The translations under genes were made by a program, and so were the position numbers. Positions 3,409 through 9,910 of a stretch of DNA of 14,924 nucleotides are shown here, in pieces. The DNA lies in the UHGV virus genome UHGV-0149279; one strand, 5' to 3'. The notes under the pieces are model-generated. The model searched no databases. It was not told where the DNA came from and was given only the letters and a program-made list of their open reading frames with translations. The first letter of the stretch is position 1. Every line of letters begins with the position of its first letter. This DNA is from a virus.

Positions 3409-4259
3409 GCTGCCCCCTTGGAACGGTAAGAATCCCAGGTGAATGACAGCGTGCACCCGCCGCCGTCGCTCATGCGGTCAATAACACGCTCACTCACGAA
3501 CGCTGCCAACTCTTCTTTGGTCTGGTTGCTGATCAGGATGGTCGGCTTCATCCGCTCGTACCGGGTGTTGATGATTTCGAACATGATCAGCTTCTCGGCC
3601 TCGCTGCCGAACTGGACGCCAACCTCGTCGATGATCAAAAGGTCCGGAGTGGTGAAGTGCGCAATCACGTCGTTCTCGCTGCGCGTCGCAGTTTTCGACC
3701 ACGTTGATTTGAACTCACGGGCAATCTTCAGCGCGGTGGTAAAAATTACCGGGCTCTGGTGTTTCTCGATGACATCACGGGCGATCGCCAGGGCAAGGTG
3801 GTTTTTACCGGTTCCCGGCTTGCCGCACATCACCAGACCACCTCCCTGCTTCAGCCGCTCGGGCCACTTAGCGGCATACGCCTGACAAACCCGCAGCGCA
3901 CGTTCTGACTCCTTGCCAACCGGCTGATAGTTTTCCAGCGTGCACGTCACAAAGCGCTCAGGGATTTCGAGCTGACGCAGCAGGCGATCGATGTTCTGCT
4001 GGCGAGTGCGGTCTTCCCAACGCTTTTTCTCGTCATACAGGAAGCTCAGCTCATCGCGAAGGCAGCCCGGACAACGAGTCGGCGGCGACGGCAGCTTGAT
4101 TAGGCTGCTGGTAAGCACGCGTTTACGCTGTTCGTATTCGCCGTGTTTCTCGCAAAGCACCGTTTCGAAGACGGTCTCGCAGTTAGGGAGTTGCTCTGGC
4201 GGCCTGCCGAGAACTTCCAGCATTTTTTCGATAGCGTCGATTTTTTCGAGCAGCTCCAT
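3405..4259 (-). CDS. DnaC-like helicase loader (IstB-like AAA+ ATPase), lambda P functional analogue
   Basis: Walker A GKPGTGKNHLA and Walker B LLIIDEVG; N-terminal Cys pairs; preferred start MELLEKID at 4259 with GAGGG RBS just after O stop (track start 4277). Confidence 0.85.
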   Translation of the reverse strand: MELLEKIDAIEKMLEVLGRPPEQLPNCETVFETVLCEKHGEYEQRKRVLTSSLIKLPSPPTRCPGCLRDELSFLYDEKKRWEDRTRQQNIDRLLRQLEIPERFVTCTLENYQPVGKESERALRVCQAYAAKWPERLKQGGGLVMCGKPGTGKNHLALAIARDVIEKHQSPVIFTTALKIAREFKSTWSKTATRSENDVIAHFTTPDLLIIDEVGVQFGSEAEKLIMFEIINTRYERMKPTILISNQTKEELAAFVSERVIDRMSDGGGCTLSFTWDSYRSKGAA

Positions 4260-4261
4260 AC

Positions 4262-5116
4262 TCAGTCCCTCGCCCATGACGGGATTTCAGTCTGGCCATA
4301 GTCCTTGCCAGCGAAGTTCTCGGATACGCGAGTCTGATTGCGGGCTGGCTGCTTGATGCCTTTCGGTTCAAACAATCCCTGCCAGCCGTTCGCAATGCTC
4401 TGGTTGATGATTTCTTCAGGCTGGTATCCGCTGCACTTGCAACGCTCAAGCAGGTTGATGGCCTGGGTTACCGTCTGCTGAGACTTAATCGGTTTCTTCA
4501 GGTCGCGACGATAATCGACCCATGACTTCCAGACTGAAACTGACAGCCATTCAGGAAGGTCAACACCAGCCGGATCGAACGAAGCCGGTTTGGGGGATTT
4601 AGGGGGTTTATTAATATTGTCTTTATTGTCTTTTGTATGTTTGTCTTTTGTGTTTACCTTATTTGGGTAAGTGTCGTTACCTGATTCGGGTAAACATTCC
4701 TTACCTGATTCAGGTAAATTTACCTCTTTCAGGTAACGTTTATTTTCATTACCTGTTTTTGGTAATTTCACCCATTCACTAACCGTTTTGTTAATGCCGA
4801 CAGAACGCCCGATTTGGGTAAATACTCCACGCTTCACTAACGAGCTTTTAGCAGCAGAGCATTTGTGCGGAAGAATGCCGGTGAGGGCAGATAACTGATC
4901 GTTACTAACCCAGTCAGCTTTTTTGTTGAAACCGTATGTTTTACGCATTACAGCCATGAAGACCAGCAACTGATGCTGAGACAATCCAGCCAGCATGACA
5001 GCCTCCAGAAGTTCATTGGCAATACGCGTATAGCCATCATCAAGATCTGCCACGCGCGGCTCCACGACCTGCAAATCAGGCCTGATTGGTGAGATATTGT
5101 TAATTGCTAAGTTCAT
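4262..5116 (-). CDS. O: replication initiation protein O
   Basis: N-terminus [20 protein letters not shown]...RKTYGFNK matches recalled lambda O ([19 protein letters not shown]...RKTYGWNK). Preferred ATG at 5116 with GGGGAGG RBS (track start 5200). Internal iterons, see repeat feature. Confidence 0.85.
4654..4765. repeat. replication origin iterons: five 17-bp repeats TTACC-N7-GGTAA, with adjacent AT-rich tract at about 4600-4653
   Basis: Copies at about 4654-4670, 4677-4693, 4701-4717, 4720-4736, 4749-4765 (TTACCTTATTTGGGTAA, TTACCTGATTCGGGTAA, TTACCTGATTCAGGTAA, TTACCTCTTTCAGGTAA, TTACCTGTTTTTGGTAA), inside the O coding sequence as in ori-lambda. Coordinates +/-1. Confidence 0.6.
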
Positions 5117-5379: not shown

Positions 5380-5925
5380 TCACATGACCCCCAACATCGA
5401 AGTGACCATCGTCATCAGCGGGCCTACCTGCTCCGGCATGAGGCGGAACAGCGACGCTATACCCTCGCTTACCTCTTTCAGCTTCTGATGCTCTGGAGCG
5501 TCCAGCAGCACAGCCTGTTTAGCTTCGGCACACTCTTTCATCGCAGAGGCGATCAGAGACATCGTGTCGTTCTGCGGCGCCAGGCGGTTGCGGTACTCCA
5601 GCGGAAGGACCGACATGATTGCTGGCGCCAGCTGGCGAATGTTGTTGGCGGCGTATTCGGTGTCGCCATCAATCCAGCGAAACACTTTCTGCATCTGGCG
5701 GTGCGAGTCAGTCGGGATATCCAGACCGGTTCCGCCGGACGCCCGCCACTCTTCAACAATCAGCGCTGCGACAAATTCACGGCTGCGGCAGTCAGCTGCC
5801 CAGGCCCGAACAGCTGCGCGGATCCCATCGATGTTTAACGCCGTGGAATCAGGTTCCCGGCGATTCTGGTAAATCATCGCCGCTGGCGAAAATTTGTTAC
5901 CTTGTTGATACGCAAGTGAATGCAT
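5380..5925 (-). CDS. YdaT-like protein (Rac-type, occupies the cII position)
   Basis: Immediately downstream of the cro-like gene. Central segment VFRWIDGDTEYAANNIRQLAPAIMSVLPLEYRNRL resembles my recollection of Rac YdaT; similarity is from memory only. RBS GGGAAAG. Confidence 0.45.
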   Translation of the reverse strand: MHSLAYQQGNKFSPAAMIYQNRREPDSTALNIDGIRAAVRAWAADCRSREFVAALIVEEWRASGGTGLDIPTDSHRQMQKVFRWIDGDTEYAANNIRQLAPAIMSVLPLEYRNRLAPQNDTMSLIASAMKECAEAKQAVLLDAPEHQKLKEVSEGIASLFRLMPEQVGPLMTMVTSMLGVM

Positions 5926-5955: not shown

Positions 5956-6201
5956 TCAGGCGGCTGTCGATTCATTTTTAATTCGGTCAGGGTTTGCAGC
6001 CTGTAGTAGCCACTCTGCCGTAAACTGCCCTTTTGATGCGTCAGCCAAAAGCTGTGAATAGTTGGTTTTCTCTGTGTACTCAGTGCGAGGCAACGCCGCG
6101 TTCTTTACCCACTTGTGAATAGCAACATTCGACAGACCACATAGGCGTGCCGCTGCGGTTTGTCCGCCTACAGCTTCGATTGCAAATTGCATTGGGTTCA
6201 T
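5956..6201 (-). CDS. Cro-like HTH regulator (YdaS family)
   Basis: 81 aa, divergent from cI; AVGGQTAAARLCGLSNVAIHKW fits the YdaS/Cro-type HTH pattern (A..GGQ.A.ARL.G.S...V..W). Confidence 0.65.
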   Translation of the reverse strand: MNPMQFAIEAVGGQTAAARLCGLSNVAIHKWVKNAALPRTEYTEKTNYSQLLADASKGQFTAEWLLQAANPDRIKNESTAA

Positions 6202-6285
6202 AGTGTTTTCCGTTAACTATATTAACTACAAGTTAAGGTTATATCTTAACTGACAGTTATGTCAACTCTAATTGATAATTAACAC
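6202..6285. promoter_or_regulatory. OR-like operator/promoter region between cro-like gene and cI
   Basis: Two palindromes TTAAC-N5-GTTAA: TTAACTACAAGTTAA (6222-6236) and TTAACTGACAGTTAT (6246-6260), plus extra TTAAC half-sites at 6213-6226. Candidate PR on minus strand: -35 TTGACA (reverse complement of 6260-6265), 16-bp spacer, -10 TATAAC (reverse complement of 6238-6243). Candidate PRM on plus strand: -35 CTGACA 6250-6255, -10 GATAAT 6274-6279, predicted start at or near the cI ATG (leaderless; no SD upstream of cI). Coordinates anchored to cro and cI start codons. Confidence 0.6.
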
Positions 6286-7053
6286 ATGGTTAAAAAAGAC
6301 GATTTAAAAGAAGAATTCTCGAAGAGACTTCGCGCTGCATTGCTTGATGCTGGCGTGGGTGGGCGTGGGCAGGCTGGCAGGATCAGGGAAGCTATGAAGT
6401 CCCAAGGGATTGCTGTATCTGAGCCCGGGATCTGGAAGTGGCTTAACGCATCAGCAATACCAGACCAAACCAATATCCTTGCACTTAGCCGCTGGCTTGG
6501 GGTTCGCCCTGAGTGGCTGGAATACGGAAGGAATGATCCTGAACCTGAACTGCACAGGGTATCATCCATCCCGCCTGAATCTGAGTGGGGAACTGTCGAC
6601 GCTTGGGACAAAAATACCCCCCTACCTGACGATGAGGTGGAAGTACCGTTTCTGAAGGATATCGAGTTTGCGTGTGGTGATGGGCGTGTTCATAGCGAAG
6701 ATCATAACGGCTTTAAACTGAGGTTCTCCAAGGCAACGCTCAGAAGGGTGGGTGCAAATAGTGATGGTTCTGGAGTGCTTTGCTTTCCCGCTTCTGGTGA
6801 CAGCATGGAGCCCGTTATTCCTGACGGCGCAACGGTAGCAGTCGATACAGGCAACAAGCGGATTATTGACGGCGAACTCTATGCTATTAACCAGGGCGAT
6901 TTAAAGCGCATAAAGCAGCTTTATCGAAAGCCTGGTGGGAAGCTATTAATACGAAGCATCAATCGCGATTATGACGATGAAGAGGCTGATGAGGCAGATG
7001 TCGAGATAATCGGTTTTGTGTTCTGGTACTCGGTATTGCGATATCGCCGATAA
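6286..7053 (+). CDS. cI: CI-type prophage repressor (N-terminal HTH, C-terminal S24 LexA-like peptidase domain)
   Basis: C-terminal GDSMEP (Ser nucleophile) and downstream DLKRIKQLY (Lys) as in LexA/CI autocleaving repressors; N-terminal HTH-like region; divergent from cro-like gene. Confidence 0.85.
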   Translation: MVKKDDLKEEFSKRLRAALLDAGVGGRGQAGRIREAMKSQGIAVSEPGIWKWLNASAIPDQTNILALSRWLGVRPEWLEYGRNDPEPELHRVSSIPPESEWGTVDAWDKNTPLPDDEVEVPFLKDIEFACGDGRVHSEDHNGFKLRFSKATLRRVGANSDGSGVLCFPASGDSMEPVIPDGATVAVDTGNKRIIDGELYAINQGDLKRIKQLYRKPGGKLLIRSINRDYDDEEADEADVEIIGFVFWYSVLRYRR

Positions 7054-7319: not shown

Positions 7320-7799
7320 ATGGATAAAATTAATTACCCACCCCTGTTTGAGCCAGGGCTCCATGACATGGATGAAGCTGGATTAAAATCGTATTGTGTC
7401 GATTGCTTTCCTTCATCATCCAGGCGAGGCATGCTATACTGTAATTTTATACAGCTACTCGAATCTATTCGAGAATTATCTGCTCAATATGGCTGTTTTA
7501 CAGAAATATGGGTTGATGGTTCATACACCACGTCTAAACCAGAGCCTGATGATATTGATATTTTGTTGGTATGTGACTATAGCAATATAAACTCAATACC
7601 TGTCATGCTTCGGGGCCGCGTCGATAATTTGCTTGACCGAAACTACATCAAACAAAACTACAAAATTGATGTCCTACTACTCATGAAGAATTTAGATGAC
7701 CCTAACTATGATTATGAGTACTGGCGTAGCTACTGGCGCGGTTGGTTTGGTTTTGATCGCAGTGAAAACCCGAAAGGGTTAGTGAGGATTTTTTTATGA
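7320..7799 (+). CDS. minimal nucleotidyltransferase-fold (Pol-beta superfamily-like) protein, 159 aa
   Basis: FTEIWVDGSYTTSKPEPDDIDILLV fits hG[GS]-x9-D-x-D-h (compare generic MNT LFGSYARGEATEDSDIDLLV); third acidic residue in a hydrophobic strand at KIDVLLL. AT-rich (roughly 35-42% GC by eye versus above 50% in flanks). RBS AAGG. Family assignment is motif-based inference. Confidence 0.5.
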   Translation: MDKINYPPLFEPGLHDMDEAGLKSYCVDCFPSSSRRGMLYCNFIQLLESIRELSAQYGCFTEIWVDGSYTTSKPEPDDIDILLVCDYSNINSIPVMLRGRVDNLLDRNYIKQNYKIDVLLLMKNLDDPNYDYEYWRSYWRGWFGFDRSENPKGLVRIFL

Positions 7800-8728
7800 A
7801 TGATAAATCAATGTTTAAAAATTGCGATAAACGCATTGATTTCATTCAAAAAGAAGTCGATGCAATGAAGCAAAACAAAACCAGGTCCTTTGCTGACATG
7901 CTTCTTTATCGCTCCATGGATTCTCATCTGAGCGATTTGAAGGCCGAAAAATTAAAGCAAGATAGTCGGCACCCACTTATCGATTTTTTTGAGCTGCGGC
8001 TGAAAGGCTCTGAGGTTGACTTTGGCTCTATTCCTTTAGAGCTGCTTGGGGCTATTTCAACAAATCTTGCAGCGCTAATACAAAGAGCAACACACAAAAT
8101 TGCCTCAGGCAAGGACTCAAAAAAAGTTCCCTACGACGTGAAAAGCTCCTTAAACCTCAGGCTGGCTGATTTATCCCCTGGGTCTACAAAATTGGGCGTC
8201 ACCTTCTCTACAGGAATAGCAGAATTAGTAGAAACAGTACCCAGCAAGGCTGTAAAAGGCATATTCGATTTGTTGTTAAGCGATGACGACAACAACTTCA
8301 TGAATCACGTCGCTGAAATTGGATACAATTCCACTGTAAGCCTTAAGAGAATCGTAGAGGAATGCGATAAACACAACTTAACATTTGATGCAAGTTGGAC
8401 CGGTCCATTTAGTAATGGCACCAAGGTGGCAACTATTGACTCCAATAAAATTAAGTACTTGGTGAGTAGACTTACATCAACCATTTCATCCCCTCCCATT
8501 ACTGAAACGGTTACAGGCGAACTGGTCGTTCTATCCAAATATGGGAAGCTGGAGCTTGATGTTGGTGGTGAACATTTAAAGGCTTCCTATCCGATTGAAA
8601 TGCTAGATTTAATACAAAAAAAACACAAGGTCGGACAGATTGTTTCTCTTTTAGTGGAGACTACTGAGATTCACAATGATCGCATAGGTCTGTACCGTAA
8701 AAACCATCTTGTTAAATCGGTTCTTTAA
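7796..8728 (+). CDS. hypothetical protein, 310 aa, translationally coupled to the upstream NTase-like gene
   Basis: ATGA overlap with upstream stop; AT-rich; no motif I can assign (one R-x4-H match, RSMDSH, near the N-terminus is not sufficient to call HEPN). Confidence 0.6.
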   Translation: MNDKSMFKNCDKRIDFIQKEVDAMKQNKTRSFADMLLYRSMDSHLSDLKAEKLKQDSRHPLIDFFELRLKGSEVDFGSIPLELLGAISTNLAALIQRATHKIASGKDSKKVPYDVKSSLNLRLADLSPGSTKLGVTFSTGIAELVETVPSKAVKGIFDLLLSDDDNNFMNHVAEIGYNSTVSLKRIVEECDKHNLTFDASWTGPFSNGTKVATIDSNKIKYLVSRLTSTISSPPITETVTGELVVLSKYGKLELDVGGEHLKASYPIEMLDLIQKKHKVGQIVSLLVETTEIHNDRIGLYRKNHLVKSVL

Positions 8729-8735
8729 TATCTCA

Positions 8736-8759
8736 CCCGGCCACCGCGCCGGGTTTTTT
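8736..8759 (+). terminator. rho-independent terminator after the cassette
   Basis: CCCGGC-caccgc-GCCGGG stem-loop followed by TTTTTT, starting 8 nt after the stop at 8726-8728. Confidence 0.7.
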
Positions 8760-8843
8760 ATTGCCCACCCATAAAGCCATCCTCCATTCTGCCGATAACT
8801 ATCCAGCCTGAAGCTGATAACAATAACTATCGCAACACTACCT

Positions 8844-8868
8844 GCCCGCCCGTGCGGGCTTTTTTATT
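8844..8868 (+). terminator. second plus-strand rho-independent terminator
   Basis: GCCCGC-ccgt-GCGGGC followed by TTTTTTATT; overlaps the 3' end of the convergent minus-strand ORF 8864..9061. Confidence 0.55.
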
Positions 8869-9061
8869 GTCCTTTCCGCACTATCTCAGCTGCATCCCTG
8901 TTCACACCCTTACCTATCACGTTTCCCGTTTCCTTCCGGTACCGTTCCAGCTTGTCGATGATGTTTTGCTGGGTCATAGGTAAATCTGCCAGTGACAACT
9001 CCATGACCGCCCGCCCCATGGCGTGAACCATCATGTTCACTCTTTCTTCATTCAAGCCCAT
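8864..9061 (-). CDS. small hypothetical protein (65 aa), convergent with the cassette
   Basis: Strong RBS AAGGAG about 8 nt upstream of the ATG on the minus strand (reverse complement of 9062-9075); no recognised motif. Confidence 0.5.
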   Translation of the reverse strand: MGLNEERVNMMVHAMGRAVMELSLADLPMTQQNIIDKLERYRKETGNVIGKGVNRDAAEIVRKGQ

Positions 9062-9169
9062 TACCCACTCCTTTTTGATGTTTTTTTCAGCATATCACAT
9101 GCCAAGCAAATCTATAACCAAACCAAATTAACCAATAAATCATAACCTTAATAACCAACACAGAAATAA

Positions 9170-9212
9170 TTAACCATTGGTTATTGACCGAAAATAACCA
9201 TTAGTTAATAAT
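9170..9212 (+). promoter_or_regulatory. pL-like promoter with two OL-like operators
   Basis: -35 TTGACC 9184-9189, 17-bp spacer, -10 AATAAT 9207-9212. Palindromes with the same TTAAC-N5-GTTAA architecture as OR: TTAACCATTGGTTAT 9170-9184 and ATAACCATTAGTTAA 9194-9208. More TAACC repeats upstream (9110-9160). Confidence 0.5.
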
Positions 9213-9625
9213 CAACCCATCGAAACGAAACATCGACAGCTGAGCGAAGTTAGCCAGCGGCGGACAGCAAGTCGCCTGCTTTTTAACAACATGCAGATTT
9301 ACAGCGTCAATGACCTGTTAAGACCCCTACACGTAAACGTGCTGTATCACCGGGTGCGATCCGGTCGGTGAGAGAGTATCCCCGCGCGAGAGCGAGAACG
9401 GCGTGAGAACGGGCAACACTGGCAGGGAGTTGGCGCTGACCAATACAGGGAATGTTATGGGATGTGGTGAAGGGTTCATGGACGGGAATATGTCGCACGT
9501 AAAGCGGCGAGGCCCGAGGAGCTATTGCCGAAGATAAGTAGGCCGAATCGGGTCGAAATGGGTCTCCCACCTACCACATCGCCAAAGCATTTCTCCCGCA
9601 TCAGCGGGTAACGACAGAGGGTTTT

Positions 9626-9910
9626 ATGGCAGACGACGATTATACGATGGCCGAGTTTTGGCGAGACATGAAGCCAGAACTTAAAGAGCGGCGCAGGATA
9701 GCGCGCAACTCGGCACATGAAGGGGTGAAGGCATTCTTTCAGCGTAATGGCGTTGAGTTCGAAGAGGGAGAGAACACCCTCATATTTCGCACGCCGCAAG
9801 GGACTGTTGTTTATTACCCGCCAAGCAAGCGGATGCAGCATAAAACCACATGGCGAACATGCAGCCCTACAGCGTGCATGAATTACGTCAACAAACTCAT
9901 GGCCGCCTAA
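9626..9910 (+). CDS. hypothetical phage protein (94 aa)
   Basis: RBS AGAGGG upstream of ATG; first ORF of the rightward arm after a roughly 410-bp leader. No recognised domain. Confidence 0.5.
   Translation: MADDDYTMAEFWRDMKPELKERRRIARNSAHEGVKAFFQRNGVEFEEGENTLIFRTPQGTVVYYPPSKRMQHKTTWRTCSPTACMNYVNKLMAA

Follow-up and report, generated by a model that had tools for sequence, protein, structure and literature searches.

A predicted CI-controlled OL/pL cassette with an immunity type different from that of phi80 in a phi80-like lambdoid prophage

Which switch lies between the small minus-strand gene and the plus-strand early operon of the virus genome UHGV-0149279, and which repressor does it obey? 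To answer this question we analysed a stretch of 14,924 nucleotides of this genome, referred to as the window in the following. The initial annotation had read the interval as a pL-like (early leftward) promoter that is embedded in an AT-rich region with TAACC repeats and carries two operators of the left-operator (OL) type. Based on our analysis we conclude that positions 9105-9216 are the OL/pL region of a phi80-like lambdoid prophage, that its immunity type differs from that of phi80, and that it would be controlled by the prophage's CI repressor; to this reading as a whole we assign a probability of about 0.9. It rests on the sequence elements, their statistics, the positional homology to the annotated pL/OL of phi80, the co-occurrence with a particular N-terminal domain of CI, and the pattern of conservation. 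The OL/pL cassette is an ordinary, well-understood type of phage switch element; what is new is an immunity specificity on a phi80 backbone that had no earlier annotation.

Both promoter hexamers lie on the plus strand as proposed, with the -35 element TTGACC at 9184-9189 and the -10 element AATAAT at 9207-9212. They are separated by a spacer of 17 nt, match 10 of the 12 consensus positions and constitute the sole promoter-like match in a promoter scan of 8600-9800. A similarity search of the region matched the 'O-L region' of phage phi80, whose record JX871397 annotates pL -35, pL -10, three CI operators, nutL and N at the corresponding position. The phi80 records compared were JX871397, X13065 and M11919, with the annotation mapped by an offset of +4889, and the comparison rests on the GenBank annotation of JX871397. 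The two hexamers of the window fall base for base on those of phi80 pL, i.e. they coincide with the -35 and the -10 annotated at 4295-4300 and 4318-4323, respectively, of the phi80 locus (L001), and it is this homology, rather than the consensus match, that supports the promoter call. From the promoter spacing the start site of pL is predicted at ~A9219, and the identity to phi80 picks up again three bases ahead of it. The promoter reads, on the same strand, into the nutL leader of phi80 and then into gam-like, bet-like and exonuclease genes, so that the pL-like character suggested earlier is borne out by position as well as by downstream context. The AT-rich composition is likewise real (30-35% GC across the region).

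The two palindromes that had been described as flanking and overlapping the hexamers are also present. OL2 (TTAACCATTGGTTAT, 9170-9184) abuts the -35 element, OL1 (ATAACCATTAGTTAA, 9194-9208) extends from the promoter spacer into the -10 element, and they overlap the phi80 operators OL2 (9171-9189) and OL1 (9194-9212), respectively. Their centres are 24 bp apart, and jointly they make up a larger inverted repeat of 20 nt; a minus-strand promoter within this repeat was considered and rejected, as the promoter scanner detected none. The same 15-bp dyad, TTAAC-N5-GTTAA, recurs three times between cro and cI, i.e. in the right-operator (OR) region, at 6222-6236 (TTAACTACAAGTTAA, the cro side), at 6246-6260 (TTAACTGACAGTTAT, in the spacer of the predicted promoter pR) and at 6279-6293 (TTAACACATGGTTAA, covering the cI start codon), corresponding to positions -64, -40 and -7 relative to the cI ATG. 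Allowing for at most one mismatch, the dyad occurs five times in the 14.9-kb window (6222, 6246, 6279, 9170 and 9194) as compared to 0.26 expected occurrences, with none of 200 shuffles reaching five, and the sites are confined to OL (two) and the cro-cI interval (three). Moreover, these five sites head the ranking by a 21-bp operator matrix that was derived from other loci and to which the window did not contribute: both OL sites share the top score of the window (27.7 bits), followed by the OR sites with 22.0 (6222), 20.8 (6279) and 18.6 bits (6246), and the next-best site reaches only 9.3. The recurrence of the dyad at OR, together with its co-inheritance with the N-terminal domain of CI described below, upholds the designation of the palindromes as OL-type operators. 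As read off the sequence, TTGACA (6266-6261) and TATAAC (6243-6238) on the minus strand are the putative hexamers of pR. The OR sites are spaced, from cro towards cI, by 24 and then 33 bp in the window, but by 33 and then 24 bp in phi80 (L001 2132-2207). The close-spaced pair thus adjoins cro in the window and cI in phi80, which suggests that control of pRM differs.

Is this set of operators inherited together with the protein that would read it? Relatives were gathered through the first 102 residues of CI alone, i.e. independently of the operators, which yielded 38 viral contigs whose corresponding domain is 70-100% identical. All 38 share OR operators at -64 and -7 relative to the cI ATG, and the -40 site, with no more than one mismatch in window-like lineages, has diverged further in those resembling the Shiga toxin (Stx) phage POCJ13. 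The OL pair is found, with its spacing of 24 bp, in 37 of the 38 contigs, the remaining one ending ahead of OL. Its distance downstream varies with the cargo inserted after cI, ranging from 932 to 2908 bp. The operator arms are constant, whereas the five central bases vary (CATTG, CACTG, CAATG, CATCG, TTTGA and others); fixed arms around a variable centre are the pattern expected for sites read by a dimeric helix-turn-helix (HTH) protein. Across 35 distinct OL versions the -35 hexamer is unchanged, and the arms of the operators associated with the -35 and -10 elements as well as those of the OR sites are identical, while divergence is seen at the N5 centres and in the flanks.

The comparison with phi80 shows where the boundaries of the element lie. 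According to alignments to phi80 and to E. coli KL53, the immunity-specific OL/pL cassette comprises 112 bp (9105-9216, plus strand) and replaces 102 bp of unrelated phi80 sequence, with flanks (8880-9104 and 9217-9622) that are ~99-100% identical to phi80 in pairwise alignment; a mosaic map of the window was made by BLAST against the phi80 locus. These flanks recur in E. coli KL53, the cargo genes on the left included, but there they enclose the phi80 cassette. As the flanks are shared and the cassette differs, the cassette is a discrete exchangeable module. Its DNA is present in 12 of 5426 complete E. coli genomes, and a search against 50,697 phage records gave no match. Within the cassette the architecture of phi80 is preserved: the -35 element TTGACC is identical, the -10 element lies on the same bases, and two operators overlap the promoter at nearly the same places, although their centres are offset by 2-3 bp from the dyads of the window. 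The nutL leader, the divergent small open reading frame (ORF) and an upstream array of direct half-site repeats are common to both as well. The operators themselves differ. Those of phi80 are of the type AATC(A/C)ACA-N3-TGT(T/G)GATT and those of the window of the type AATTAACC-N3-GGTTAATT, i.e. they share a 19-bp geometry, but their half-sites differ at two of eight positions. In phi80 the N-terminal domain of CI, cro and the OR layout are unrelated to those of the window at the DNA level. As to membership in the imm80 group, phi80-type operators are absent from the window and the DNA-binding domain of CI is unlike that of phi80.

The repressor itself reflects the same exchange. The cI gene (6286-7053, plus strand) encodes a protein of 255 amino acids (aa) that matches Pfam Peptidase_S24 (5e-19) and a PHROG transcriptional repressor (1.7e-46). 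From about residue 93 onwards CI is nearly identical to phi80 CI, comprising the S24 peptidase and oligomerisation domain, whereas residues 1-92 barely align; at the DNA level, similarity of cI to phi80 starts only at 6567 (BLAST). CI aligns with its phi80 counterpart in the CGDG segment at the self-cleavage position and in the GDSMEP serine motif, and is predicted to retain the oligomerisation and RecA-sensitive domain of phi80. As a phi80-like C-terminal domain is combined with a different N-terminal domain, heteroimmunity to phi80 is predicted for this phage. The cI gene lacks a Shine-Dalgarno sequence, and a -10 element, GATAAT (6274-6279), is located 6 nt ahead of its ATG (6286), with CTGACA 18 nt further upstream; a leaderless cI mRNA is therefore predicted, as for lambda pRM. 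The divergent cro-like gene (5956-6201, minus strand) encodes an HTH protein of the YdaS type. YdaS and YdaT have been shown to be analogues of Cro and CII in another E. coli prophage (PMC8630535).

The binding and repression by CI, the cooperativity, the looping and the start sites, all of which we infer for the OL/pL cassette, would combine into a classical switch. In the lysogen, dimers of CI would occupy the dyads at 9170-9184 and 9194-9208, and CI at OL would exclude RNA polymerase because one dyad abuts the -35 element and the other one fills the spacer and overlaps the -10 element. At OR, the three copies of the dyad would govern pR and pRM, and Cro may be expected on the same operator sites. 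Cooperative binding and OL-OR looping are plausible by analogy with three other lambdoid repressors, as looping has been demonstrated for the repressors of lambda, HK022 and phiKO2 (PMC8053113). Self-cleavage of CI, stimulated by RecA, would lift the repression, and σ70 RNA polymerase would then begin at ~9219 and transcribe the nutL leader and the early-left operon (gam, bet, exo) on the plus strand.

How far does the operator region extend upstream? The half-site-like TAACC repeats that the initial annotation had placed at 9110-9160 turn out to be genuine and enriched. TAACC occurs at 9115, 9129, 9143, 9152, 9171 and 9195, i.e. in six copies that are all on the plus strand. An 8-nt half-site matrix built from other loci finds four matches in 9106-9167, all on the plus strand, as compared to 0.45 in dinucleotide shuffles of the same stretch (P ~4e-4). 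The strongest of these, AATTAACC at 9126-9133, 42 bp upstream of OL2, scores 12.2 and thus equals the left arm of OL2; TAAC is found at this offset or one base off in 34 of the 35 distinct OL versions, including those of the POCJ13-type phages. Read as a full operator (9128-9142), this site reaches 4.0 bits (rank 8 of 14904), as opposed to 18.6-27.7 bits for the real operators. It is thus the best candidate for a weak, OL3-like third site and, judged by its sequence, at best a half-site. The other three are TAATAACC at 9149-9156 (plus strand; score 11.2, TAAC at this offset in 28 of 35 versions), TCATAACC at 9140-9147 (plus strand; 9.1, 21 of 35, in the window-like lineage only) and the weak CTATAACC at 9112-9119 (plus strand; 7.8, 17 of 35), which overlaps the predicted -35 zone of the small gene; the half-sites at 9112 and 9140 are lineage-specific. 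In phi80 the equivalent place is taken by three perfect, directly repeated copies of the phi80 half-site, AATCAACA. In 8.7 kb of phi80 there are six perfect copies of it, three upstream of OL, two as OR half-sites and one unrelated, and the GenBank record annotates the first two upstream copies as the third OL operator. Most likely, the four half-sites of the window (9112-9156) would be weak extra contacts for CI, equivalent to this third operator of phi80.

The array may also concern the small gene divergent from pL. The minus-strand ORF at 8864-9061, noted earlier, is indeed present; it codes for 65 aa, belongs to phrog_3975, and its start codon is preceded by GGAG, a strong ribosome-binding site. 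Searches of Pfam and NCBIfam with this ORF gave nothing. The gene is found at the same position and on the same strand in most related loci, with 28 distinct proteins of which most share the C-terminus GNVIGKGVNRDAAEIVRKG; a few lineages have a different small protein at this place and POCJ13-type phages have none. It also occurs in HK639, in HK225 and, unannotated, in phi80 (L001 ~3995-4210). Between gene and array lies a block (9078-9099) that is conserved across diverged OL versions and contains, as read from the sequence, a candidate extended -10 element, TGaTATGCT (9089-9097, minus strand). The promoter scanner does not call it, and its -35 matches at only three of six positions; the corresponding -35 zone would land on the half-site 9112-9119, inside the immunity cassette. 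By analogy, a divergent and possibly CI-controlled promoter of the small gene is a reasonable assumption, and the half-site array could serve to widen cooperative or looped occupancy and to shut this promoter. That the array is a functional unit in its own right, through which the divergent promoter of the phrog_3975 gene, hitherto unrecognised and the third one of the immunity region, comes under the control of CI or Cro, is an unlikely extension that we put forward only tentatively. The interval 8864-9099 (minus strand) of the window also contains an upstream ORF of 10 codons (MLKKTSKRSG) that meets the start codon of the small gene through a TAATG overlap. Since the ATG of this ORF is joined in frame to the gene in other lineages, the conserved block may act either as a promoter or as a short coding leader.

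The array is also the point at which another explanation has to be weighed. pL and its two operators may be as described, with the TAACC repeats serving instead as an architectural or promoter element, such as an UP element or IHF-bent DNA, and/or as the -35 region of the small gene. IHF is known to stimulate from upstream of lambda pL. The upstream sites are poor as full operators (at most 4.0 bits), the stretch has 30-33% GC, and AATCATAACCTTA (9137-9149) departs at a single position from the IHF core WATCAR-N4-TTR. Its equivalents in related lineages have one or two mismatches to that core, and such matches are common in AT-rich DNA; an (A/T)TCA element is kept at this place in all lineages. 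In line with this explanation, two of the four repeats (9115 and 9143) are restricted to particular lineages, and the conserved extended -10 candidate of the small gene adjoins the repeats. On the other hand, the repeats correspond to the operator half-site, have one orientation and exceed the number found in shuffles of the very same stretch, they lie within the swapped immunity cassette and not in the shared flank, and phi80 repeats its own, different half-site at that place, with one pair being annotated as CI operator. Moreover, POCJ13-type phages keep the conserved half-site although they are without the small gene. As the repeats are inside the exchanged cassette and change with the operator specificity, recognition by the repressor (or Cro) is favoured over a purely architectural role, which we regard as possible but not probable.

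Two further explanations would affect the whole region. The locus could be a decayed remnant, i.e. a look-alike of pL/OL in a defective prophage that is no longer a regulated promoter. The replacement of N by an unrelated ORF without known phage relatives points in this direction, as do the many related loci that are fragments of prophages in bacterial chromosomes. Decay is nevertheless improbable, since the -35 and -10 elements, both OL operators and three OR sites are intact, with arms that stayed identical in the 35 distinct versions while neutral positions diverged, and since the reading frames of cI, cro, the cII-like gene and the genes for replication and recombination are uninterrupted. 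That palindromes and hexamers are mere chance features of AT-rich intergenic DNA would agree with the number of promoter scan matches, which is no higher than in shuffled sequence, but is refuted by the excess of dyads, all located at OR or OL, and by their co-inheritance with the N-terminal domain of CI, and conflicts with the exact positional homology to the annotated phi80 pL; its probability is negligible. Iterons of a replication origin were rejected as the identity of the region, since in phi80 origin-type repeats sit within the O-like gene.

Several observations weigh against our interpretation of 9105-9216 as CI-controlled OL/pL. By itself, the promoter consensus match is no better than chance (one found, 1.4 expected from shuffles). 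A third full OL operator was sought with the 21-bp matrix and none was found, leaving two full dyads; three OL operators are typical of the family (lambda and, as annotated, phi80), but not strictly defining. The upstream sites lack a right half, and occupancy by CI is therefore uncertain there. The N-terminal HTH of CI is weak in Pfam (HTH_3, E=0.019, below the cut-off), and a PDB sequence search with CI matched no solved structure. Scans for the pattern of the OL pair gave 41 loci, but in these the arms are fixed by the pattern itself, so that they are conserved by construction and conservation had to be judged on the loci retrieved via CI. Finally, an unrelated ORF of 94 aa (9626-9910, plus strand) replaces phi80 N exactly, from start to stop codon, and has no match in Pfam, PHROG, NCBIfam or a tblastn search of phages. 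The nutL and the region of the tL1 terminator around this replacement are still ~99-100% identical to phi80. The 94-aa protein may be an antiterminator, or the function of N may have been lost from the prophage. As N is replaced, expression of the early-left operon may differ from that in phi80, and the prophage may be a defective one. Apart from the number of full operators and the weak HTH signal, all tested defining features of a lambdoid OL/pL are present.

The proposed specificity is not restricted to the phi80 backbone. The closest full-length relatives of CI are found in the Stx phages POCJ13, 75/02 Stx and phiSTEC1589-Stx1c, with 76-78% identity including the N-terminal domain. These phages have the same dyad at OR (TTAACTTCGAGTTAA, TTAACGTATGGTTAA) and at OL (TTAACTTTGAGTTAT, CTAACCAACGGTTAA), a TTGAC -35 element and the 24-bp operator spacing of the window. 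In contrast to the window, they have only one upstream half-site, which is the conserved one (~41 bp upstream), a different backbone (Sepvirinae), and neither the small divergent gene nor cargo between cI and OL. The operators carry no annotation in the records of POCJ13 and phiSTEC1589-Stx1c, and a literature search found no paper on the operators of POCJ13-type phages. With lambda the window shares the organisation, i.e. divergent early promoters flanking cI, repeated dyads that overlap the promoter at a spacing of 24 bp, an S24 self-cleaving repressor and, probably, a leaderless cI message. However, the lambda operators are 17-bp sites without sequence similarity to the 15-19-bp TTAAC dyad of the window, and lambda has three full OL operators as compared to two full ones plus half-sites. 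The putative pL of HK639 resembles that of the window in having the same small divergent gene, the same transcribed start (CCATCGAAACG) and two dyads overlapping the promoter, but HK639 has a third operator type, ATAAC-N4-GTTAT, and annotates put-like, RNA-based antitermination instead of nutL and N.

Our analysis thus predicts a concrete lambdoid immunity specificity, in which the operator consensus given above is paired with a particular N-terminal domain of CI. This specificity is unannotated in the public records examined, including those of the Stx-converting Shigella and E. coli phages POCJ13 and 75/02. It also provides a clean natural case of fine-scale mosaicism: a 112-bp cassette and the DNA-binding domain of CI, 2.5 kb apart, were exchanged together, while the C-terminal domain of CI, the small gene and the pL leader remained phi80-like. 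The predicted heteroimmunity concerns phi80, a common laboratory contaminant, and the system might be used as an orthogonal repressor-operator pair that carries the oligomerisation domain of phi80. The understanding of such switches is left unchanged, and to the specialist the result will be tidy but unsurprising.

The genes around the cassette follow the canonical lambdoid layout. DnaC-like and O-like replication genes, a cII-like gene (YdaT type, 5380-5925) and cro are on the minus strand, followed by OR; on the plus strand come cI, two cargo genes and two terminators, then the minus-strand gene 8864-9061, and beyond it OL/pL, the nutL leader and the gam-like, bet-like and exonuclease genes, again on the plus strand. 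The two cargo genes (7320-7799 and 7796-8728) lie on the strand of cI at the position of rexAB in lambda. They match the candidate defence system PDC-M63 of PADLOC (component A 4e-41, also Pfam DUF6932; component B 7.5e-45) and are probably prophage-encoded anti-phage genes that are co-transcribed with cI. The pair is also found in E. coli KL53, where an IS4-like element interrupts it.

The pL leader, 400 nt in length and carrying nutL, is 100% identical to that of phi80. The nutL of phi80 spans 9277-9341 on the plus strand, with boxA (TGCTTTTTA) at 9277-9285 and a hairpin (CACGTAAACGTG) at 9330-9341. A search of the whole window against Rfam at the gathering threshold returned no RNA family, and the leader is therefore not a curated RNA. 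A terminator-like hairpin, GGCGGACAGCAAGTCGCC, at 9259-9285 (plus strand) is followed by TGCTTTTTA; as the latter is what phi80 annotates as the boxA of nutL, the terminator call probably reflects nut-site context and not a stop signal. In two E. coli prophages RefSeq places an 'ECs_2282 family putative zinc-binding protein' opposite the pL leader (L004 5245-5697 and L005 5233-5562). This call corresponds to ~9476-9841 on the minus strand of the window and overlaps nutL and the region upstream of N; it looks doubtful because the leader is conserved as non-coding sequence.

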